A stretch of DNA of 64,000 nt from Candidatus Limnocylindrales bacterium (GCA_049520815.1 JBEKPL010000007.1:3-64002), one strand, 5' to 3'; shown: positions 52,240-64,000, counted from the first letter of the stretch. The notes: generated by a model from the letters alone, not told the origin. Program-made: numbers and translations.

Positions 52240-52260
52240 CCACGAGGCGAAACAGACACG

Positions 52261-53580
52261 GTGACCGGCGCCCTCTGGCGGTATCTGCGCAGCTTCACGG
52301 GCTTCAGCCGCGACGCGCGGCTATTCCTGCTGACCACGATCGTCTTCGGGGCGGCACTCAGCCTCTACTGGATCGACTTCAACCTCTACCTGGAGTCGAT
52401 CGGGCTGGGTTGGGCCATCGGCTGGCTCATGGCGGCCTCGCAGCTGGCGGGCGTCATCGTGGCCCTGCCGGCCAGCGCGATCTCCGACAGGATCGGCCGG
52501 CGCAAGGTCATGGCCGCGGGAATAGCCCTGGTCGCGGTCGCACTGTTCGCGTTTCTGCCGGGTGACTTGCCTCTGCTCTTCCTGGGCGTGGTGGCTCTGG
52601 GCGCCGGGTCCATGGCCGTGAGCGTGGTGCAGGTCCCGTTCATCGCCGAGCACACACGGCCAGATCAGCGCAACGAGTACTTCGCGATCTGGTCGGCGAT
52701 CGGGTTCCTCACCGGCGTCGTGGCCGCCCTTGTGGGCGGTGCGGCGGCCCCGGAGATCGCCTCCCTCCTGAACCTGGGTTCGGACGCGGCACCGTATCAG
52801 ATCCTGCTGAGCGGAGTCGCCGTGCTGGGCGCTCTCTCGCTTGGGACCGTGTGGCTTCTCACCGGCGATGGGCCGCCGGCCGACCGAGCCCTGGCCACGG
52901 GTGCGCGCCGATTCGGCATCGTCGTCCTGGATCGGAAGCTCTTCTTCCGGCTGCTGTTGCCCGGATTCCTCACTTCTCTGGGTGCCGGCCAGCTGATCCC
53001 GTTCCTGAACGTCTTCATCCAGAACAAGTTCGGACTGGGCCTGGCCGCCGTGAACGCCGTTTTCGCCGTGAGCAGCCTCGGCACGGCGCTTGCGATCCTG
53101 GTCCAGCCGGCCGTGGCTCGCCGATTCGGTCGTATCGGATCCATCGTTCTAGTGCAGGGGGCCAGCCTTCCGTTCCTGGTCGTGCTCGGCTTCTCGCCGG
53201 TGCTGTGGACGGTGATCGTCGCCCTTGCCGTGCGCAACTCGCTGATGAACGCGGGCAGCCCGATCTTCGACGCCTTCGCTATGGAGCGCATCTCCCCGAC
53301 GGAGCGCGCCACCCTGTCCGCCGGAATGACGATGCTGTGGTCGCTCGGTTGGACGATCGCACCGCTGTACTACGGCGTTCTGCACGCCTCGCTTTCGTTC
53401 ACGGCCGCTTTCGCCGTGGACTTCGTCACGATCATCGTGCTGTACACGGTGGCCACGTGCCTGCTCTGGACCTGGTTCCGGGGCACCGACCGCGTGGCCG
53501 CTACGGCCGCGGACGAGGAGGCGACGCTGGCGGCTGCCGTGGTGGCTTCGGAAAGCCCCTCCCTCATCGAGAGGGCCTGA
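52261..53580 (+). CDS. MFS transporter
   Basis: About 12 hydrophobic helices, with an MFS loop motif (SDRIGRRKVM) between TM2 and TM3. Confidence 0.88.
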   Translation: MTGALWRYLRSFTGFSRDARLFLLTTIVFGAALSLYWIDFNLYLESIGLGWAIGWLMAASQLAGVIVALPASAISDRIGRRKVMAAGIALVAVALFAFLPGDLPLLFLGVVALGAGSMAVSVVQVPFIAEHTRPDQRNEYFAIWSAIGFLTGVVAALVGGAAAPEIASLLNLGSDAAPYQILLSGVAVLGALSLGTVWLLTGDGPPADRALATGARRFGIVVLDRKLFFRLLLPGFLTSLGAGQLIPFLNVFIQNKFGLGLAAVNAVFAVSSLGTALAILVQPAVARRFGRIGSIVLVQGASLPFLVVLGFSPVLWTVIVALAVRNSLMNAGSPIFDAFAMERISPTERATLSAGMTMLWSLGWTIAPLYYGVLHASLSFTAAFAVDFVTIIVLYTVATCLLWTWFRGTDRVAATAADEEATLAAAVVASESPSLIERA

Positions 53581-53583
53581 AAG

Positions 53584-54774
53584 CTAGGAGCTGGCGACGG
53601 CCGGGGGTGACCCTATTGCGCTCGGCACGCCTGAGTGGAGCGGCACGCCCGAAGGCAGAGGCACGCCCGTCCCGCTCGGCACGCACGAGTGGAGCGGCCC
53701 GCACGAGGGGAGCGGAACGCCCGAGGGGAGCGGAACGCCCGAAGGCAGAGGCACGCCCGTCCCGCTCGGCACGCGCGAAGGGACTCCGACCGGACTTACA
53801 TCCGGCGAAACGATGGGCTCGGCTTCGCTGCCCCCGAGAAGCGGATAAGGTAGCCAGCCGGATTGCAGAACCGCGGCCAGCTCCTCGGCGCTTTGCGCTG
53901 TGAAGTTGCCCGAGATCTCACCCTCGCCGCCGACGATCGTCGACTTGATGTAGGGCACCGAGAGGACCCTGCCGTCCAGCGCTATCGCGAAGTACTCGTT
54001 GATGTGTTGACCGGACCACGTCTCGAATGCAGTGGCTGCCGCCTCCTTGAAGGCAAAGTTCACGACCCAGGCCTCCGGGGACATCCTGGTGTCGACCGCG
54101 GCGCTGATTGCGCCCAGGTCCAGGTCCGCGCCGGTGAACTGAGCCGGCAGCGAGGGGTCAATCGAGTCGCCAGAACTCGGCACCGGCTTCGTTCCCGGCG
54201 TCTCGCCGGTCCCGTACGTCTCGGGCGGCAGCAGCACGAACTCGAGGTGACCGGTCTGGCCGATCAGTCTCCGGGCCTCCGCCGTGTCGGCGACGCCTTC
54301 CAACCAGACCGTGATCTGATCCGGCGGCGCCTCATTGACCGAATACGACGTCGCTCCCAGGGAGCCAGCGCGCTTGATGAGGACCGCCTTGGTCGCATCC
54401 AATTCGGCGGGGGTCACCTGGGTCCCGGCCGGATGCACCAGCTGATAGGAAAGGCCGAACCCATGGTCGCTGGGCGACGCCGGCGATCCGGAGAGCCCGG
54501 GGGTCCCGGCGAATGCGGCAGATCCATTTCCCTTGAAGGCCTGACTTCCCACGCCAACCGCAACGGCGACCACCACAAGCGCCGCGACCAGGACCAGCGG
54601 CGCGAGGCCGCCCGATCCAAGCCCGCTGCGCACAACCACCCTCGGGCGGACCTGTGCAGGCTCGGTGAAGGCCGGCCCCAACGCCGGCGGCTGCGGGATG
54701 AGCGGCTCGGCGCCGGCCAGTCGGCGGCGCACTCCATTCAGAATCTCGTCATCGGAATGCGGGTTCTCATTCAT
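53584..54774 (-). CDS. single-pass membrane protein with a SecD-P1-like extracytoplasmic domain, in the anti-sigma position
   Basis: ATGA overlap with the ECF sigma gene. One TM segment (LAPLVLVAALVVVAVAVGVG). ITVWLEGVADTAEARRLIGQTGHLEFVLL and FAIALDGRVLSVPYIKSTIVGGEGEISGNFT..EELAAVLQSGWLP resemble the SecD periplasmic head. The tail is a GVPLPS repeat. Confidence 0.6.
   Translation of the reverse strand: MNENPHSDDEILNGVRRRLAGAEPLIPQPPALGPAFTEPAQVRPRVVVRSGLGSGGLAPLVLVAALVVVAVAVGVGSQAFKGNGSAAFAGTPGLSGSPASPSDHGFGLSYQLVHPAGTQVTPAELDATKAVLIKRAGSLGATSYSVNEAPPDQITVWLEGVADTAEARRLIGQTGHLEFVLLPPETYGTGETPGTKPVPSSGDSIDPSLPAQFTGADLDLGAISAAVDTRMSPEAWVVNFAFKEAAATAFETWSGQHINEYFAIALDGRVLSVPYIKSTIVGGEGEISGNFTAQSAEELAAVLQSGWLPYPLLGGSEAEPIVSPDVSPVGVPSRVPSGTGVPLPSGVPLPSGVPLPSCGPLHSCVPSGTGVPLPSGVPLHSGVPSAIGSPPAVASS
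53618..53780 (-). repeat. in-frame tandem repeat of 18 nt (hexapeptide), about 9 units
   Basis: Units such as ggagcggaacgcccgagg and gcagaggcacgcccgtcc are repeated. They encode SGVPLP/SGTGVP-type repeats at the C-terminus of the 53584..54774 protein. Confidence 0.8.
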
Positions 54775-55337
54775 TGCCAGATCTCCGGGTTGCGGCGCAG
54801 GGCTGCGCAGGCTCGCGCGACGAGCGATCGAACGGCCGAGGCGGAGATCCCCAAGATCTCGCCGATCTGGTCGTCGTCCAGGTCGCGCTGGTAGCGCAGG
54901 ATCAGTACTTCACGCTGCCTATGCGACAGCTCACGAGCGAACCGCTCGAACCAGAGCCAGAACTCCGTTCGGCTGGTCCCGGCTTCCTCGGAAGGCTCGC
55001 GGGCGGGGCTCAGAGACCCGAGCGGCAGCCACGACAGGAGTCGCCGTCGCCGGGCTCGGTCGATGACCAGGCGCCTGGTGATGAGCAGCAGCCACGGCAG
55101 GGCCTGGCCCTCGGGTCCGTGGCCGGCTTGCCAGGCCGCAAAGGCCCGATGGAATGCCTCGGCGGAGACGTCTTCTGCGTCCTCGACCCGCCTCAGCATC
55201 AGCAATGCGTAGCGATACACATCGCGGTAGCGCTGCCGGTAAAGCGTGGCGAAGGTCTCGTCAAGCTCGTCCGTGCGAGCCTCCCCTACCAGCTCGAGCA
55301 CATCATCAATCCCCTTGTCGACGGTCGCTTCCATCAT
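54771..55337 (-). CDS. ECF (group IV) sigma-70 family RNA polymerase sigma factor
   Basis: Region 2 (FATLYRQRYRDVYRYALLML...DAEDV.AEAF) and region 4 (LS.RQREVLILRY..DL.D.QIGEILGIS..AV). Confidence 0.9.
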   Translation of the reverse strand: MMEATVDKGIDDVLELVGEARTDELDETFATLYRQRYRDVYRYALLMLRRVEDAEDVSAEAFHRAFAAWQAGHGPEGQALPWLLLITRRLVIDRARRRRLLSWLPLGSLSPAREPSEEAGTSRTEFWLWFERFARELSHRQREVLILRYQRDLDDDQIGEILGISASAVRSLVARACAALRRNPEIWQ

Positions 55338-55385
55338 GAACAGACTGACGAAGCAGCGGACGGTTCCGTCCCGCGCCGCGGATAC

Positions 55386-58300
55386 CTACCCCTGCAGCAC
55401 GGCGGGGCCCCGTGGCCGGCCCGGATCGGGCATCCACTCGCCCAGCGACCGGACCTCCGCAAGCCGCTCGCGCAGGTCCGGGTCCAGGGCCTCCGCGGCG
55501 GCGACGGCGGTCTCGATTGCGGTCAGGCACAGGATCCCCTCCGCCGTTGCGGCAAGACGGATCTCGGCGGCGTCCCGGACCGGGCCGGACTTGGGCGCGG
55601 GCGTGTTCACGACGAGCCGGACGCGGCCGGAGGCGATCAGCTCTAGGATCGGCACGCTGCCCTCCGCCGCCGTCTCGCCCACCTTGGCCACGACCTGCGC
55701 TTCGTATCCCAACCCACGCAGTTCCGCGGCCGTTCCCGAGGTGGCTGCGAACCGGTACCCGGCCCGAGCCAGGGCGTGGGCCACACGCGGCAGCTCCCCG
55801 TGGTCCCGTTCCGCGATGGAGATGAGCGCCAGCGCCCCGTCCGCCCCCGGCCGCGGTGGGATCAAGGCCGCGCCCTGCATCGCCTTGGCCAGAGCCACGC
55901 GCGGGTCCGTGTGCAATCCGATGACCTCGCCGGTGGACTGCATCCCCGGACCCACCGACGGATCCACTCCCCGCAGCTTGGCCGTGGAGAAGGCCGGCGC
56001 CTTGACAGCGACCAGCGACGGCGGCTCCAGCAGCCCGTTCCCCCACCCCATTCCCGCCAGCGTCTCCCCGAGCGCGATCCGGACGGCCAGCTTCACCATC
56101 GGCACGCCGGTCACCTTGCTCATGAACGGCACCGTCCGGCTGGCCCGCGGGTTGACCTCGATCAGGTACACGCCGTCGTCGCGAACGATGAACTGGGCGT
56201 TGACCAGCCCATGTACGTCCAGCGCCCGAACGATCCGATCCATGGCGTCGACGATCAGCCCCTGGTCGGATATCGAGACCGTCTGCGGCGGGAACATCCC
56301 CACCGAGTCGCCCGAATGGACGCCCGCCCGCTCCACGTGCTCCAGGAGGCCCGGGATCAAGACCGTCTCGCCGTCGGCGATCGCGTCCACGTCCACCTCG
56401 ATCCCTTCGAGGTAGCGGTCGATCCGGACCGGCCGATCGGGGTCCACGACCGTCGCCCGCGCCAGCTGGTCCACGAGGTCGGACGGCGAATATGAGAAGT
56501 CGATGGCGAGGCCGCCGATGACGAACGACGGCCGAACGATCACCGGGTAGCCGATCCGGTCGGCCAGCGCTAGCGCCTCCTCGATCGATCGAGCCATCCC
56601 GCCCTCTGGTTGTGGAATGCCGACCAGATCGACCAGGTTAGCGAAGCGGAGGCGGTCCTCCGCCTGATCGATCGTCTCCAGGTTGGCGCCCAGGAGCGGG
56701 ATCCCGGCCGCGGCCAGGGGCTCGGCCAGGTTGAGTGGTGTCTGGCCGCCGAACTGGACGAAGGCGCCCAGCATCGGCGCTCCCTCGGGCGTTTCGGCTT
56801 CCACCACGGAGCGCACGCTCTCCGGGTCCAGAGGCTCGAAGTAGAGGCGGGACGATGCGTCGAAGTCGGTCGAGACCGTTTCCGGGTTGGAGTTGATCAT
56901 GACCGCCTGCCAGCCCAGCTCGCGAAGCTCGGCCGCGGCCTGGACCGCGCAGTAGTCGAACTCGATCCCCTGCCCGATCCGCACCGGCCCCGAGCCGATG
57001 ACCAGCGCCGCCGGCCGCTCCACGGGCGGCAGCTCCGGGTCGGAACCGGCGGCCGCGTACGTGGCGTAGAAGTAGGGCGTCTCGGCGGCGAACTCCGCGG
57101 CGCACGTATCCACCATCGCGTAGCCGGGCACGAGGCCCAGCTCCATGCGGGCCAGCCGAATAGCCTCGGCAGTGACGCCGGCCATCATTGCCAGCTCGCG
57201 ATCCCCGAAGCCTTCGCGCTTCACGGTCGCCAGGAGAGTGGCCGCCTCCTCGTCCCGTGGATCGGCGATCCGCGCCCCGTACTTGCGAACCTCGCGCTCG
57301 AGCGCGATCGCCCGCTCGAGCTCCCTCAGGAACCACGGGGAGATGCCGGTGACGCCCCGGATCGTCTCGGCCGGCATGCCGCGCCGCAACAGGGCCAGGA
57401 TCCGCCACAGGCGCGAGTCGGACGGGGCCAGAAAGCGCTTCAAGACGATTGGGTAGGCGGCTCGTTCGGCGTGGGCCCTGGCCTCGCACATCAAGCCGCC
57501 GGCGTCGATCGTGACGATGGGCTGCGCGGGAGCGGGCTCCATCAGGTAGTCCAGCGTGGCCGCCCAGCCGTCGTTCTCGGCCAGGAAGCCGGCGCCCACC
57601 TGCTCCAGCGCACGCAGGGCCTTGTTCAGGGCCGAGCCGAAGGTTCGATCGATCGCCATCACCTCGCCGGTCGCCTTCATCTGGCTGCCCAGGGTTCGGT
57701 CGGCCGTGGGGAACTTGTCGAAGGGGAAACGCGGCAGCTTGACGACCAGGTAGTCCAGGGCCGGCTCGAAGGCCGCCACCGTCGTCCCGGTCACGACGTT
57801 CGGGATCTCCGCCAGCCGCCGGCCCACCGCGATCTGGGCCGCGACGCGCGCGATCGGATATCCCGTCGCCTTGGACGCCAGGGCGGATGACCGGCTGACG
57901 CGCGGGTTGACCTCGATGACCGCGTAGTCGGCGTTGTCAGGCGAGAGCGCGAACTGGATGTTGCAGCCGCCCTCCACGCCGAGCGCCCGAATGATCGCCA
58001 GGCTCGCCGAGCGAAGGCGCTGGTGGACCGGGTCCGGCAGCGTCTGCACCGGCGCGACCACGATCGAGTCGCCGGTGTGGACGCCGAGCGGGTCCACGTT
58101 CTCCATCGAGCAGATGGCGATGCAGGTGTCGTCCGCGTCGCGCATGACCTCGTACTCGATCTCCTGCCAGCCGACCAGGCAGCGCTCGATCATGACCTGC
58201 CCGATAGGGCTAAGGCGCAGCCCCGTCCGGACGCGCTCCCAGTAGGCCTCTTCGGTCTCGACGATGCCGCCGCCGGTGCCGCCCAGGGTGAAGGCGGGCC

Positions 58301-58836
58301 GGATGATCGCCGGCAGCCCGATCTTTTGGAGAGCCTCATGCGCCGCCCCGTCGCGCTCCTCGTCCGTTTCGCCCTCGATGATCCATGACGGCGCGTACGG
58401 CTGGCCGATCCGGTCCAGGAGGTCGCGGAACTTCTCCCGGTCCTCGGCCATCTCGATCGCCTCCAGGGTCCAGGGGCGTGCCGATGAGCCGGACGTTGTA
58501 GCGGTCGAGCACGCCGGCCTTGGCCAGCGCCACGGCCAGGTTGAGGCCGGTCTGGCCGCCCAGTCCGGCGAGCAGCCCCTCCGGCCGCTCTTTGGCGATG
58601 ACCTGCTCGATGGCCTCGACGGTCAGCGGCTCGAGGTAGACCACGTCCGCCACCTCGGCGTCGGTCATGATCGTGGCCGGGTTCGAGTTGACCAGGATCG
58701 TCCGGACGCCCTCGGCCCTCAGCGCGCGGCAGGCCTGCGTGCCGGCATAGTCGAACTCGGCCGCCTGGCCGATGACCACGGGCTTGGGCTTGGGCAGGCG
58801 CGGCGCCGTCGCCCGCGCCTCCGGCTGAGCCGTCAT
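55386..58836 (-). pseudogene. carB: carbamoyl-phosphate synthase large subunit, reading frame broken by a 7-bp tandem duplication
   Basis: The N-terminal 120 codons (58836 to about 58476; [21 protein letters not shown]...VRLIGTPL) and the remaining 1021 codons ([12 protein letters not shown]... to 55386) are in different frames. The junction is TCCAGGG-TCCAGGG (58462-58475). Deleting one copy restores [14 protein letters not shown]. Confidence 0.85.
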
Positions 58837-58925
58837 ACAAAAAAGCCACCGGCCTCGCGGGCTCGGTGGTTCAGCTTACAGGCGACCATGGACCTCCTTC
58901 CCGGCCTCTCTGGACCGGTACGCCG
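58833..58925 (-). promoter_or_regulatory. PyrR-type pyrimidine attenuator or leader upstream of carB, with an 18-codon uORF
   Basis: The minus strand reads GGUCCAGAGAGGCCGG (58905-58914 core), matching the remembered PyrR-binding consensus RUCCAGAGAGG. AAGGAGG and a uORF follow (58889 to 58833, [18 protein letters not shown]). The uORF TGA overlaps the carB ATG. Confidence 0.55.
58839..58869 (-). terminator. intrinsic terminator within the carB leader
   Basis: Minus strand: CCACCGAGCC-CGCGA-GGCCGGTGG followed by CUUUUUUG. It ends 2 nt before the carB ATG. Confidence 0.65.
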
Positions 58926-59207
58926 GCCTCACAGGACCGGCCGCAAAGGTTGCGCGTAGGTTATCACGAAGGCAAACAGGGTACGCGCCAGAGCGGGTAC
59001 GGGCCAGGGCCCCGATCAATGACACAACGTGTTGCGCATGCGGGCCGCAGTTCCGCCGCGTACGGTCAAGCGCCCGCTACGCCCGCTCGATGGGATTGTC
59101 AAGCCGACGCCGCAGCGACGTACTCGACGCCTGTCATCCCCTCGAAGAGACAATCTTGAGTCCAGAGCGTCGCGCCGTTCGCACGTGTGGCGGCCAGGAT
59201 GATGGCA

Positions 59208-59261
59208 TACCAACGAAAACACCAAGCCGAAGGCCAGGTCAGCTGCAAGCGCGGGTTGGGC
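59208..59261 (-). other. terminal attC candidate (degenerate)
   Basis: The minus strand has R'' GCCCAAC (59261-59255), exactly complementary to GTTGGGC at the start of this cassette. A possible R' GTTGGTA lies at 59214-59208. Only weak internal pairing was seen. Confidence 0.35.
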
Positions 59262-59265
59262 CGCC

Positions 59266-59493
59266 CTATCCCAATAGCGAAACCACATTCTGGACAACTA
59301 CGCCAATACTCTCTAGCTCTATACGGGCTCGTTCATCAAACTTCGAGATCGCGTCTGCCACAGCCACCAATCGAAAATCGCGCTCGCTGGTTTCATATAT
59401 GGACGTCCGCGGGCAGTTTGGGTAATTACACCCCAAAAATGCTAATGTGGAAATACCCAGCATTCTAAGAATATGCCTGAACCGAGAGTGCAT
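59266..59493 (-). CDS. hypothetical small protein, second ORF of the last cassette
   Basis: ORF ending 5 nt before the R'' box. ATG at 59493 (MHSRFRHILRML...). No family recognised, and it could be non-coding. Confidence 0.3.
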   Translation of the reverse strand: MHSRFRHILRMLGISTLAFLGCNYPNCPRTSIYETSERDFRLVAVADAISKFDERARIELESIGVVVQNVVSLLG

Positions 59494-59531
59494 CTGCAAG
59501 ACTTCGGAAGTCTCTCCCCCATCCGCTAGAA

Positions 59532-60158
59532 TCACCAAGAATTCCAGTGGATCTTCTCTTCTACTTTGACGGGATACGGTTCAATCTTTGACGCATTATC
59601 AGACGGGTATCCTAGCGCCAGGTAGCACGGGATCTCGTAATCCGATGGGCATTTGACGACCTCTTTTATATGCTCGATCTCAGCACCCATGGGGATTCTA
59701 GTAACGCCGTAAATGCCCTCTGCGGAGGCTGCGATAAGCATGTTCTCGATGCAGCACCAGATCGAGGCGAAGGGATTTAGGGCTGATAGGCAGTCAGGCT
59801 TCAAAAGCGGCCACGGCTGCCGGAAGAAAGGCAGAATCAGGCATGCGGCTTCGAGGAGCATCCTGTATTGCTTCGGAACGGCGATGAGGTAACTCTCGCG
59901 TTGGATGGGGTCCGTGCTGCCCCAGCTGTCGAGCCAGGCCGCCACCCCTTCTCTCGTGAAATGTTCCTGCACTTTGTCGATCAATCTCAACCGGATCGGC
60001 TGATCCTGAACCACGACGAATTCCCATTCGCGCATGTGGTTGTGCGAAGGTGCGCGGAGACCCGCGTCGACTATCCTTCTGATGGTCTTTGCATCGATAG
60101 CCTTGGGTTGAAAATCCCTTACAGATTTTCTTTTGAGAATAGCCTCATATGCATCCAT
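59532..60158 (-). CDS. nitroreductase family protein
   Basis: AILKRKSVRDFQPKAIDAKTIRRIVDAGLRAPSHNHMREWEFVVV is typical of the nitroreductase N-terminus. The RBS is AAGGGAGA. Confidence 0.85.
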   Translation of the reverse strand: MDAYEAILKRKSVRDFQPKAIDAKTIRRIVDAGLRAPSHNHMREWEFVVVQDQPIRLRLIDKVQEHFTREGVAAWLDSWGSTDPIQRESYLIAVPKQYRMLLEAACLILPFFRQPWPLLKPDCLSALNPFASIWCCIENMLIAASAEGIYGVTRIPMGAEIEHIKEVVKCPSDYEIPCYLALGYPSDNASKIEPYPVKVEEKIHWNSW

Positions 60159-60358
60159 ACTCGATTTCTGTGTCTCCCTTTTGTTTTGTAATCACTTAGA
60201 GGGCAGACTCAGCTCCTCGAAGCAGCAGGGAGCAGTGAGAGAGACGGCAGTGCGATGAGCAATAACCGCCTGGCGGACGTAGTCCAGTGTGGTGATTACC
60301 CACAAGTATGAGAATAAGGAAGACTCTGCTGCGATATGGTAAAGTAGGCTCACCACCA

Positions 60359-60418
60359 GCCCAACGTGTGCGGCTTGAGCTGCGAGCGCAGCGAGTCTGC
60401 TCGAAGCCGTCGTTCGGA
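60359..60418 (-). other. attC site (60 bp)
   Basis: Minus strand: TCCGAAC-GA-CGGCTTCGAGC-N18-GCTCAAGCCG-CACAC-GTTGGGC. R' is a perfect GTTRRRY. There is one bulged base in the L'' arm. The site starts 9 nt after the stop of ORF 60428..61105. Confidence 0.7.
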
Positions 60419-60427
60419 AAGCCCAGC

Positions 60428-61105
60428 CTACCCACTGATTGAGTTCGCTTCCTTTTCGTAGCCAATCTGCCAGAAGTACATGTCCACGAGCTTCATGAGC
60501 GGATAGCGGATCTCACTGCTATGCTCGATGCGTGCCTGCTCATCCTGCAGCACAGACAGATGCGCGTCGCAGAAGGCGAGAACACGTTCCACAAACAGGT
60601 CATTCAGGGAGGAGTACGCGAGCCCCTCGCCCCTGAAGCCATCGATGAAGTAGCGGTCGCAGGCGGGTAGGCACCCGAAGGTTCCGAGAATGACCTTCGT
60701 GATGAGCGTGTCTGTTGGCCGTGCAGACCCCGTGGCTCGGGCGAAGGGCTTGTACGCCTCCCTGATTCCCTCGATCAGATCGTGGATACAAGGTACGAAC
60801 TGAGCATCCGTCGCTCTCGCGCCAAGATCAGCATCCCAGAGCGCATCGAAGCGCGTTTCCGCGACCAGCTCGATGACGTCGCGGTGCACGGTATATGCAC
60901 GCTGCAGCAGGAAGCTGGATCCGCGGTACATGCCCCAGCTGGCGAGGTAACAGGCAAGCTGGAGAGCGGCATGATCGCGATCAGCGACGAGGCCGTCCCG
61001 CCTGGCTTGCCGGAAATAACCATAGCAGTGGTCCCATGAGCGGTAGCGGTGATGCTCGCCAACAGCGGCACCGTGGTATGCCTGTATCACGCGCTGAATG
61101 CTCAC
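60428..61105 (-). CDS. hypothetical protein (cassette-borne)
   Basis: 225-aa ORF (HHRYRSWDHCYGYF...) that fills the cassette. GTG start 27 nt after the cassette boundary. Confidence 0.6.
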   Translation of the reverse strand: MSIQRVIQAYHGAAVGEHHRYRSWDHCYGYFRQARRDGLVADRDHAALQLACYLASWGMYRGSSFLLQRAYTVHRDVIELVAETRFDALWDADLGARATDAQFVPCIHDLIEGIREAYKPFARATGSARPTDTLITKVILGTFGCLPACDRYFIDGFRGEGLAYSSLNDLFVERVLAFCDAHLSVLQDEQARIEHSSEIRYPLMKLVDMYFWQIGYEKEANSISG

Positions 61106-61126
61106 AACCTCACTTCACCGTGGTCT

Positions 61127-61254
61127 TCCGAACGGACTGGCTCAGCGGCAGCGGCGGGACTGGCGAGACTTTTTCTCGATTATCGCGCTTCTTCTGGCAA
61201 AACGCGCCGGTCTTCGAGCGGCAGAGCTGCTGTCCGTTGGAGCCGGTGTTAGCC
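61127..61254 (-). other. attC site (128 bp)
   Basis: Minus strand: R'' GGCTAAC (61254-61248) and R' GTTCGGA (61133-61127). A long imperfect stem pairs 61136-61155 with 61226-61247. G61239 and T61233 are extrahelical. Confidence 0.65.
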
Positions 61255-61479
61255 CGCATCTTGGATTAGGAAGACGCGAACTCTAGAGTTATCTTCTCTA
61301 CAGTTGCCAAATATGTGGTGACAATGGATCTCGCCGCCGACGCTTAATCATCGCATCGGCGCTGAGCGACGGTTTACCGACAATCACTCTTTTCACGCCA
61401 AATGACTGCACTGAAGAGCGGCATCGATTGAGGTATGCCCTTTCCAGGTGATGGTTAGCCGCTCTTCAGTGGTGTGAAA

Positions 61480-61728
61480 TTACTTGGCTACAACAGCCTC
61501 ACTTCCCTTCATGAGTTGACTCTTGAGGTCAGCCAAAGCTTTCGTATGCGCCTGCAATGAATTGAGTATTGCAGAAGCGAAAACCAGTTCTGCTGGCGTC
61601 GTCCAGCCGGGACGGTGAAGGATGATGATCAGCTTTTTCCAATCATTGGGCGTTGCTAGATGTGCCAAAGCGTCGCTCAAGCTGGTAACTTGTTTTTCGA
61701 GCTGCTGGATGTCGGTTGCACTTGCCAT
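61480..61728 (-). CDS. hypothetical small protein (cassette-borne, helical)
   Basis: 82-aa ORF with a GGAG-type RBS (GAGGAGACTACT before the ATG). No family recognised. Confidence 0.55.
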   Translation of the reverse strand: MASATDIQQLEKQVTSLSDALAHLATPNDWKKLIIILHRPGWTTPAELVFASAILNSLQAHTKALADLKSQLMKGSEAVVAK

Positions 61729-61902
61729 AGTAGTCTCCTCTATTCATTCAAGCGAGTATAGGTTTGCTGTGCGAAGGGGCAACAGATATGCACAGTGGGA
61801 TCTGCATTCTTCGACCGATTGCTCCAGTACCGGATGATCAAAGAATCATGAGCTGCTCCTTTCTATTGACGCGGACGGCGTCAATCTTCCATGCAAAATG
61901 CG

Positions 61903-61984
61903 GGCTAACGTTGCCGTTCACCTGCGGCGGACCGAGCGACCGGAGGGAGTGAAGACCGGCGTCAGGTGAAACGGCTTGTTCGGC
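61903..61984 (-). other. attC site (82 bp)
   Basis: Minus strand: GCCGAAC-AAG-CCGTTTCACCTG-N38-CAGGTGAACGG-CAAC-GTTAGCC. There is one bulged base in the L'' arm. The site starts 20 nt after the stop of ORF 62004..62837. Confidence 0.7.
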
Positions 61985-62003
61985 GTGTAATGAAGGCCGG
62001 TCA

Positions 62004-62837
62004 CTACCTCAGCCAACGCTTCCGGAGTCCGTCGTTCAACAGCGCTCGCGCATACTGCTCGGGGTTCTGATCCGAAGCATTCCTGGAGCGCGTTGCTTCG
62101 CCCGAGCGCTCAGCAGCGGCATACGCCGCGATGGTTCGCTCGATATCGCGGCCATGTTCTACGAAGAGCCGCTGCATGATCTCACGTTGGGTGGCCGGCC
62201 GAGAAGCGGTACCGTCGGCGGAGGAACTCCTCGAGGGTCGAAGAGTCGAGCCACGCGGTACGGAATGGCTCGGCGGGGTAGGAATCGGGCCGAAGAGCGC
62301 CGCGCGAGCGTTCGCCGGCCACTCATCAATTCGTTGATATCGAACCGCGTAGCCGAAATGCCACATCTTAGTGAGGATCGGCACAATCTCCGGAACATGA
62401 GCCCTCAGGAGGCGATCGGCATAATCTCCGAGGGCGACGACGCGCGTCGGTCGTAGGATTGCCAGTTCCTGGCGGAAGAAAGCCACGTGCGCGGCAAAAT
62501 CGTGGGGTAAGCCGCTCCTCAAAGCGCCCGCAGATCCACGCTTCTTGCAGAGATCGGTGAGATGCGCATTGCCGACCCCGAGACTCGTAAGGAGACCATA
62601 GAACTCGCGGCGATGCCGGTGCGACGACTCCCAAGGGCTTGTCGACGGCTGATCGCCAACGATGAACAGCGGCCCGGTCCCTAGGAAACCCCGGACCGGC
62701 CCGTCAGCAGGGAACCGCCACCAGTCAGGATGCCCGTCAATGATCGCCGCCAACTCGGCCAGCGTCGGTTCGTTCATGCTCTTACATTCCGCGATTGTAT
62801 TGCCGCCGAACACCGGGGATAAGCTGCGAGGCTCCAC
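62004..62837 (-). CDS. uracil-DNA-glycosylase-superfamily-like protein with an extra C-terminal helical domain (cassette-borne)
   Basis: GPLFIVGDQPSTS (resembles UDG motif A, GE.PG)...NAHLTDLCKKRG...VVALG. The true start may be ATG 62777 (MNEPTLAEL). Confidence 0.55.
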   Translation of the reverse strand: MEPRSLSPVFGGNTIAECKSMNEPTLAELAAIIDGHPDWWRFPADGPVRGFLGTGPLFIVGDQPSTSPWESSHRHRREFYGLLTSLGVGNAHLTDLCKKRGSAGALRSGLPHDFAAHVAFFRQELAILRPTRVVALGDYADRLLRAHVPEIVPILTKMWHFGYAVRYQRIDEWPANARAALFGPIPTPPSHSVPRGSTLRPSRSSSADGTASRPATQREIMQRLFVEHGRDIERTIAAYAAAERSGEATRSRNASDQNPEQYARALLNDGLRKRWLR

Positions 62838-62842
62838 TATGC

Positions 62843-63622
62843 TCAGGCTTCGTCAGCTTCATCCCCTTGTTCGCTGGCTCGTCTCCACCGCGAGATCGTA
62901 GATGACTCGGGATCCGTCGACCTCCGCCCCGAAAGCGAGAGCTCGCAGATTGGCGCCCCGAAGATCATCTGCGCTGCGTCCCTTGTAGAACCTCCCCGTA
63001 CCCGCCGGCAAGGGCGCCTTCTCGGGGAGATCGATAGGCCGATGACGACCCAGGCTGTCTCACCGGCCCCGAGCTGCAGCGAGCCGACCAACGAAGTACC
63101 CATCGACAGCCTCCCGGGCCAGCCAGGAACCGTGACGGGCGGCTCCACTAGAAGAATGGCGATCTCCGTGGCCTTGCCGTCGGGAGCATTGGGCAACCAG
63201 GTAACCTCAGGATCAGCAGGACTGATCGGACTCGTCACCGCCGCAGAGGGAGTGACGATCCGGAACGCCAGCACGATGCCGGGGGCAAGCGGAGACGGAC
63301 GCGGCCAGCGTTCCACGAAACGGTCGCGACCCTCCGGTACGACGTCCTTGACAGCAGACTCGAAGGTCTCGTGGGTGTACGCCGTGTGCCACTTACCCGA
63401 TGCGTGCAGGCTCGTCTTCAGGTGGCCGCCGAGTGGGCGGCATGCCAAGTACAGGTCGAGCCTCTCGCCGCCACCGTCGGTCCACAGCTTCCACGTTGCG
63501 GCTCGGTACCCGCCAACAGCAGCTATTCCGAACCTGAGCTCTTCACGTGGCATCGCAGATTGTCCAGCGAACAGTGAATGGATGGATCCGCGTAACTCCC
63601 CGAACACTGGCCGGGGTCGCAT
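62843..63622 (-). CDS. hypothetical protein (first cassette ORF), probably frameshifted near 63040
   Basis: The N-terminal 190 aa look protein-like, while the last roughly 65 aa are Arg/Ser-rich. An alternative frame from about 63050 gives [59 protein letters not shown] and stops at 62859. Confidence 0.45.
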
Positions 63623-63739
63623 AGCACGCCTGGTTCGATCGAAGCGGAGAGTGCCCGGACGGTGCGGTACGAGCGCGCTGTGTTAGGTCCGTGTGCTCGC
63701 CTCGGCGTCTTATGCGGATCGGCATAGCATCCTCCTCCC

Positions 63740-64000
63740 TCAGAGCCCATCCACCGGGCTGCGAACACCCGCCGGGCCGCGGTTGAGGACGTGGATGTAG
63801 ATCAATGGTGGTCTTGACGTCGGTGTGGCCCAGGAGCTCCTGCACCGTCCGGATGTCGTAGCCGGCTTCGAGCAGGTGCGTGGCGAAGGAATGGCGGAAC
63901 GTGTGACAGCTGGCCCTCTTGGTCAGTCCGGCCCGCGTAACCGCGTCCCGTACCGCCCGCTGGACCAGGGCCTCGTCGATGTAGTGGCGGCCCTGCTCGC
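63740..64000 (-). pseudogene. intI: integron integrase (IntI-type tyrosine recombinase), C-terminal part only, with a 1-nt frameshift before the catalytic Tyr
   Basis: Translates to [64 protein letters not shown]. After an extra base at about 63804, the +1 frame reads [20 protein letters not shown] and then a stop at 63740. Confidence 0.85.

Follow-up and report, generated by a model that had tools for sequence, protein, structure and literature searches.

The DNA stretch studied here (hereafter, the window) comprises 64,000 nucleotides (nt) assigned to Candidatus Limnocylindrales bacterium (GCA_049520815.1, JBEKPL010000007.1:3-64002), and its right end carries a chromosomal integron. Read along the minus strand, the locus can be interpreted as the following succession of elements (Table 1): (i) the 3' end of an integron integrase gene (intI), which runs off the end of the window; (ii) an integron attachment site (attI) of ~175 nt; (iii) five gene cassettes, four of them bounded by firm cassette recombination sites (attC) and one by a degenerate terminal attC; (iv) a carB leader; and (v) the carB gene itself. 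In integrons, the integrase (IntI) recombines the folded hairpin of the attC bottom strand with attI (insertion) or with another attC (excision), and cassette genes, which are mostly promoterless, are read from upstream. In this locus, the cassettes would be read by transcription entering from intI and attI.

Table 1. Features of the locus, in the order in which they are read on the minus strand, followed by the recombination sites between cassettes (ORF, open reading frame; aa, amino acids; R1 and R2, attC covariance models described in the text).
Feature	Coordinates	Strand	Remarks
3' end of intI (pseudogene)	63740..64000	-	three-frame translation and TIGR02249 match
attI	63566..63739	-	three blocks conserved with 8 relatives; ~175 nt
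Cassette 1	62811..63571	-	ORF 62843..63553, 236 aa, no family match
Cassette 2	61909..62810	-	ORF 62004..62777, 257 aa; weak likeness to the uracil-DNA-glycosylase superfamily
Cassette 3	61133..61908	-	ORF 61480..61728, 82 aa, no family match
Cassette 4	60365..61132	-	ORF 60428..61105, 225 aa, widespread uncharacterised family
Composite last cassette	59028..60364	-	nitroreductase ORF 59532..60158; 89-aa ORF 59266..59535; PIN/VapC-like 3' end
carB (carbamoyl-phosphate synthase large subunit)	55386..58836	-	flanks the distal end of the array
attC1	62875..62805	-	AGCGAAC...GTTCGGC; R2 43.1 bits, E 1.5e-8; absent from the original prediction
attC2	61984..61903	-	GCCGAAC...GTTAGCC; R2 45.1 bits, E 4.9e-9
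attC3	61254..61127	-	GGCTAAC...GTTCGGA; 128 nt; R2 24.2 bits, E 9e-4; weakest of the four firm sites
attC4	60418..60359	-	TCCGAAC...GTTGGGC; 60 nt; R2 49.5 bits, E 3.8e-10; top score
attC5 (degenerate, terminal)	59104..59022 (R2: 59082..59022)	-	GCTTGAC...GTTGTGT; 186 nt upstream of the carB start

The stop codon of intI lies at 63742..63740 (minus strand), and the integrase peptide is obtained by translating the minus strand of 64000..63743. The 85 residues encoded within the window have NCBIfam TIGR02249 (integron integrase) as their best family (143 bits over 84 aa; XerC reaches 85 bits). Two metagenome contigs from other assemblies extend the gene beyond the window: (i) L001, a Logan assembly contig (SRR7028477) that is 100% identical to window positions 64000..58923 and reaches 432 nt further; and (ii) L002, from the ENA MEGAHIT assembly ERZ27250059, which is 99.7% identical to 64000..52241 and reaches 538 nt further. 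By joining the window to the L002 extension and correcting a frameshift, a 211-aa integrase can be reconstructed. This reconstruction scores 329 bits with TIGR02249, where the cutoff is 265, and spans positions 105-315 of the 315 in the profile, whereas the XerC and XerD models give 124 and 110 bits, below both the IntI score and their own cutoffs (335 and 330). Furthermore, it is colinear, without a gap, with residues 109-318 of the Vibrio cholerae integrase VchIntIA (PDB 2A3V; 203 bits). The extra domain specific to IntI proteins is also present: a stretch of 25 residues, encoded in L001 and L002 just past window position 64000, aligns gap-free to VchIntIA residues ~200-235. Structures of the XerC/XerA type align instead in two distinct blocks and leave out query residues ~75-131, which correspond to the IntI extra domain, and the XerD structure aligns over the C-terminal ~50 residues only. 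Regarding its relatives, the integrase reaches 70% identity with that of a Treponema denticola locus and up to 82% with those of metagenome-assembled genomes (MAGs) among the GTDB representatives, which do not include the window's own genome.

At the level of sequence, the recombinase is thus assigned to the IntI family and not to XerC/D. The original prediction had taken the C-terminal tail for that of an integron integrase, and both the family scores and the extra domain bear this out: the protein neither sides with XerC/D nor lacks the IntI domain. A second statement, that the last 260 nt of the minus strand encode a certain peptide, holds in part. The peptide is there, but not in a continuous frame, as the "(M)" with which it was quoted conceals a +1 frameshift.

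In order to detect attC sites, two covariance models were built from the arrays of other genomes, with no window sequence in either of them. The first one (R1) derives from nine attCs of a repeat array downstream of intI in a 1.06-Mb Coriobacteriia contig, and its consensus hairpin has 22 pairs, ten of them with compensatory changes. The second one (R2) derives from 60 attCs that R1 gathered from 80 related loci, which came in turn from an integrase search of GTDB representative genomes. Both models were run on both strands of the whole window. Three matches, all on the minus strand, were returned by R1: attC4 (41.2 bits, E 1.1e-11), attC1 (25.5 bits, E 3.6e-6) and attC5 (16.7 bits, E 0.005). 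With R2 there were exactly five, again all on the minus strand and all within 59022-62875, with none elsewhere in the 64 kb. When the search was limited to the 5.2-kb region of the array, the E value of attC3 improved to 7.8e-5, and no further attC appeared there with the R2 filters off. In this unfiltered search the firm sites scored 24-50 bits on the minus strand and 5-14 bits on the plus strand (13.9, 11.6, 5.4 and 7.9 bits for attC1 to attC4, respectively), a difference that settles their orientation. The sites are all co-oriented and lie 0.8-1.4 kb apart, inside the 4 kb by which an array of two or more sites is defined. The models thus identify as attC, on the minus strand, the three palindromes that had been proposed as such (60359-60418, 61127-61254 and 61903-61984), which R2 recovered at exactly those coordinates. 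Four features had gone unnoticed in that prediction: attC1, attC5, attI and the pseudogene state of the integrase. The left border of the element had been set at 59208: a remnant shared with a relative does start there, but the array ends at 59022, ~190 nt further left.

Predicted folding gives a further view of these sites. The attC bottom strands carry extrahelical bases on one arm of the hairpin and, as expected, in three of the four firm sites (attC1, attC2 and attC4) the additional base is predicted to bulge from the 3' arm of the window plus strand; the DNA fold z-score of attC1 is -5.0. Rfam, which holds no attC family, gave no attC match in 58500-64000 at E<=10, only chance ones (a flavivirus stem-loop, a long non-coding RNA, a small nucleolar RNA). 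A generic scan for AAC...GTT hairpins (ViennaRNA, DNA parameters) was dropped as not discriminating: it found ~50 comparable hairpins in this window of 70% guanine-cytosine (GC) content.

The attI site was delimited by aligning the 200 nt past the intI stop with the same region of eight relatives from different phyla (loci L003, L005-L009, L011 and L016). Three blocks are conserved: (i) CTATGCCGATCCGCATAAGAC at 63727..63707, right after the stop (consensus with relatives, TTATGCCGAYCCGCATAAGAC); (ii) GGCGTGCTATGCGACCC at 63630..63614 (consensus, GGCGTCTTATRCGGAC); and (iii) AGTTACGCGGATCCATCCATTCACTGTTCGCT at 63597..63566 (consensus, CTTATGCGGATCCATCTAATCAnTGTTRGSC). Among the relatives, similarity persists up to the GTT of the third block, after which the sequences diverge completely. 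The block ends in the box TGTTCGCT (63572..63566), a crossover box of the GTTRRRY type, and the crossover would therefore be placed between G63572 and T63571, within GTTCGCT. This point lies 18 nt ahead of the cassette-1 ATG (63553), the same start codon chosen by the gene callers in L001 and L002. An alternative start of the first cassette at GTTCGGG (63606..63600) had been considered and was dropped for GTTCGCT after the attI alignment. The intI stop, attI and the first cassette are contiguous, with the same spacing as in relatives whose integrases are intact. Across phyla, the attI region of this integrase clade contains three copies of a TTATGCSGAYC-like motif, the first of which forms an imperfect palindrome directly after the stop; by their appearance, these copies look like integrase-binding repeats.

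Since the minus strand carries intI, every ORF and every attC top strand, with attI downstream of the intI stop, the integrase reads toward its own cassettes, as had been predicted. This layout had been thought unusual, an opinion that the relatives do not support. With R2 (E <= 1e-3), 103 attCs were detected in 43 of the 80 related loci, and 90 of these sites, in 39 of the 43 loci, lie on the same strand as intI and downstream of it. The classical divergent layout occurs in the remaining four loci, among more distant relatives (61-63% identity). Among the relatives that show the inverted layout are Treponema denticola, Synechococcus, Chlorobiaceae, Planctomycetota, Actinomycetota, Coriobacteriia and Chloroflexia. 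Actually, an "inverted integron-integrase group" is known from the literature, where it was discussed by Cury et al. (2016; PMC4889954) and such a layout was also treated by Wu et al.; it comprises Treponema denticola, other Treponema and relatives in Chlorobi, Cyanobacteria, Planctomycetes and others (PMC4889954, PMC3607928, with earlier work cited in both). Likewise, the idea that integrons are rarely reported in genomes of such high GC content finds no support here: Chloroflexota figure among the integron-bearing phyla (PMC8618304, PMC4889954), and MAGs of high-GC Actinomycetota, Coriobacteriia and Chloroflexia carry arrays of the same kind.

The integrase gene itself shows two lesions. The first one is an extra T at 63805/63804 (window, ACCACCATTGATCTAC; relatives, ACCACCATGATCTAC), and the peptide can be read only by skipping it. 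This +1 frameshift sits directly ahead of the catalytic tyrosine (MIYIHV; motif MIY(T/I)HV), and the same frameshift is found in the window, L001 and L002, i.e., in three assemblies. The second one lies past the window end. In L001 and L002, the intI frame starts at ...DEVKAVLAQL, that is, at TIGR02249 position ~105 or residue ~125 of full-length relatives, and the N-terminal ~105-125 residues (profile positions 1-104; the N-terminal domain, about a third of the protein) are replaced by a duplicated carB 5' fragment (carB'). As a result of both lesions, an intact integrase frame with its catalytic tyrosine is not found. The carB' fragment (L002 1-170, L001 1-60) runs through codon ~178 in the same orientation as intI, and carB 5' sequence is thus present at both ends of the integron. 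In comparison with the resident carB, it is identical over 136 nt and then shows eight mostly synonymous differences in 30 nt. The junction with intI, ...GAAGAT followed by GAGGTCAAGG, is identical in L001 and L002. Assemblers typically stop at two-copy sequence; both contigs end within the carB repeat, yet they cross the carB'/intI junction unbranched. There is good, although indirect, evidence that the N-terminal domain would also be missing in the window's own genome. With the catalytic tyrosine removed by the frameshift and the N-terminal domain replaced, the integrase would be dead, and the array would probably be a frozen relic unless another IntI acts in trans.

Taking all of this together, the locus is best read, with a probability of roughly 85%, as a decaying integron of the "inverted integrase" type, sedentary and chromosomal, in a genome whose carB is closest to that of Candidatus Limnocylindrales. 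The integrase, attI, the attC array and the conserved flanking synteny agree with the original prediction of a chromosomal integron. The composite last cassette and the truncated intI would mark an ongoing decay toward a cluster of attC sites that has no integron integrase (CALIN), and the fact that attI and the intI catalytic domain are still recognisable points to an early stage of that decay.

Several observations weigh against this interpretation. Regarding the integrase, the three assemblies may derive from related samples, so the frameshift is possibly shared and not independently confirmed; only L001 and L002 show the N-terminal truncation, past the window end; and an odd 7-nt duplication in the window carB indicates that local assembly or sequencing errors are possible. 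Regarding the sites, attC5 is marginal with R2 (12.3-12.5 bits, with an E value of 0.92 for the whole window and of 0.07 for the 5.2-kb region), while attC3, attC4 and attC5 fold no better than shuffled sequences (z-scores of -1.0, -0.7 and +0.95). Regarding the array, no attC belongs to the nitroreductase unit itself; all three assemblies show one and the same cassette array, so cassette turnover is not directly seen; and a scan of 58800-64000 for sigma-70 consensus promoters and terminators gave nothing above shuffled expectation, although that consensus may not be the one of the host.

It is unlikely that the integron is in fact intact and active, with a full-length IntI that still shuffles cassettes, and that errors of sequencing or assembly gave rise to both the frameshift and the carB'-intI junction. 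This would fit with the errors suspected in the window carB (the 7-nt duplication and a 24-nt deletion, both absent from L002), with L001 and L002 ending in a repeat, where assemblers are unreliable, and with an integrase frame that is otherwise clean and up to 82% identical to functional relatives. Nevertheless, the extra T recurs in the window and in the assemblies SRR7028477 and ERZ27250059, and it is a duplicated T within ATTGAT, where there is no long homopolymer run. The unbroken junction in both contigs argues against a path through a full-length intI at appreciable coverage, and carB' has its own pattern of mostly synonymous differences, which would be unlikely for a chimera.

Much less probable is that the cassettes form a CALIN, placed at a secondary site by a distant integrase, and that the adjacent intI fragment is unrelated debris. 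CALINs are common (PMC4889954), and in one relative (L084), which has no intI, a single attC occupies the corresponding position upstream of carB. Against this, the intI stop, the conserved attI and the first cassette are contiguous, and their spacing matches that of relatives with intact integrases. The weakest alternative, a genomic island next to a tyrosine recombinase of XerC/D-like or phage type, with palindromes that are terminators or repetitive extragenic palindromic (REP)-like repeats, could draw on the many comparable hairpins in the window, the silence of Rfam and the poor fold z-scores of several sites, but we count it as already refuted by TIGR02249 being clearly the best family and above its cutoff, by the extra domain, by attC models from other genomes that match this region only and on one strand only, and by an attI conserved with relatives.

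The decaying inverted-type integron can be compared with three known systems: (i) the inverted group, with which it shares the attC architecture R''-L''...L'-R' and from which it differs in its probable Limnocylindrales-like Chloroflexota host, in having five cassettes (the T. denticola array has 45), and in an integrase that is frameshifted and apparently N-terminally truncated; (ii) the V. cholerae superintegron, likewise sedentary and chromosomal, with cassettes that mostly code for proteins of unknown function, and here with the remnant of a toxin (PIN/VapC), but in which intI and cassettes are divergent, the attCs (Vibrio cholerae repeats) are very uniform and the cassettes number more than 100, whereas the attCs described here are heterogeneous, with lengths of 60-128 nt, and the integrase is presumably inactive; and (iii) CALINs with an intI pseudogene, which also consist of a short attC cluster beside a decayed intI, but here attI and most of the intI catalytic domain can still be recognised. 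With respect to the latter, 15 of 279 CALINs were found near intI pseudogenes, and it has been proposed that CALINs arise by integrase loss (PMC4889954).

The locus provides one well-delimited sedentary integron of the inverted type in a poorly studied, high-GC, probably Chloroflexota lineage. As a snapshot of early decay, in which the integrase would be dead while attI and attC are still recognisable, it is a data point on the origin of CALINs. It is useful as annotation and leaves the known mechanism and layout of integrons unchanged; two features may merit a specialist's attention, namely an attI architecture that is shared between phyla and the duplicated piece of carB that adjoins intI.

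The latter feature admits a tentative, rather doubtful explanation: carB' and the intact carB may have been left behind by a transfer that needed no integrase and proceeded by homologous recombination within carB. The transferred piece, circular or linear, would have contained the truncated intI, attI, the cassettes, the carB leader and the carB 5' end, and its donor would have been another Limnocylindrales strain. A carB allele of foreign origin would fit the differences, synonymous for the most part, that mark the final 30 nt of carB'. If this were true, homology of the flanking core genes could carry whole arrays from strain to strain, even once their integrase has died.

At the other end of the array, the next gene is carB, as had been noted. 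In comparison with L002, the window copy contains (i) a tandem duplication of CCCTGGA (~58470-58476) that shifts the frame and leaves two overlapping ORFs (58336-58836 and 55386-58451); (ii) the 24-nt deletion, near the start (~58784); and (iii) three substitutions at ~58326-58328. Either the window carB is a pseudogene or variants of the carB' copy were mis-threaded by the assembler. Proteins named Candidatus Limnocylindrales bacterium match the carB of L002 at 92% identity, and the host is probably a Limnocylindrales-like member of Chloroflexota. The gene order downstream of carB is common to three related loci (L083-L085), none of which has intI, and this shared order confirms a chromosomal setting. 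Furthermore, window positions 59208..58833 share 82% identity, VapC remnant included, with the sequence upstream of carB in L084. The orthologue of attC5 in L084 scores 40.6 bits (E 5e-8), and such good preservation implies that the terminal attC5 is real and older than the low-GC cassettes.

The carB leader (~144 nt, 58831-58974) shares 92% identity with the sequence that precedes carA in relatives (L085, 2400-2543 and 9789 onward). Hence, one and the same element seems to lie upstream of both carA and carB, and it may be a regulatory leader common to the two; the Rfam scan had no match in its window copy. In close relatives, whose carB is 93% identical, 6-8 kb of variable accessory genes lie between carA and carB, for the most part on the strand of these two genes (L083 3900-9700, L085 3860-9620, L084 2250-10000), among them PhdYeFM/PIN toxin-antitoxin pairs, TIR-domain proteins and DUF1801. 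With filters off, the attC search of L084 and L085 returned a single site (L084 9305-9386), the toxin-antitoxin/TIR region having no detectable attC array. The carA-carB gap is a hotspot of accessory genes in this lineage.

With regard to the cassettes, the minus strand carries every ORF of appreciable size between 59266 and 63622. The GC content is 0.49-0.62 at 59200-62000 and 0.61-0.65 at 62000-63700, in comparison with 0.66-0.74 in the flanks; the original description of compact same-strand ORFs of lower GC than their surroundings is confirmed by these windowed values and by the five to six minus-strand ORFs. None of the six cassette proteins had a match in PADLOC, and a tblastn search with the cassette proteins against the 80 related arrays revealed no cassettes in common.

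In cassette 1, the last ~70 residues of the ORF (62843-63050; the C-terminal third) are rich in arginine and serine and apparently out of frame, and a second frame that overlaps the ORF (62859..63011) terminates within attC1; a frameshift may thus be present in the cassette-1 gene as well. The likeness of the cassette-2 ORF to the uracil-DNA-glycosylase superfamily (PF03167) has an E value of 0.0012 and stays under the gathering score. In cassette 3, just past its 82-aa ORF, there is a perfect 14-bp inverted repeat (61409-61471) with a 35-nt loop, which the attC models do not match and which could be a terminator or a relic of another recombination site; the ~150 nt between this hairpin and attC3 contain no obvious ORF. 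The composite last cassette combines the nitroreductase-family ORF (PF00881, E 3.5e-19) and the 89-aa ORF with a truncated PIN/VapC-like 3' end, which starts at ~59208.

The cassette-4 protein has 3190 homologs and no Pfam domain. One homolog with 71% identity, in unrelated Joint Genome Institute contigs (L089/L090), is followed after 10 nt by an attC (38.7 bits, E 1.6e-7), and this pairing indicates that the gene travels as a cassette elsewhere. Homologs also occur outside integrons: one overlaps the stop of a gene for an 871-aa AAA_13 ATPase, beside CTD6/MC2 conflict-system genes (L087 1996-5285), and another one is located among conjugative-transfer genes (L091 6001-6720). Such surroundings suggest a role of the cassette-4 family in defence or conflict.

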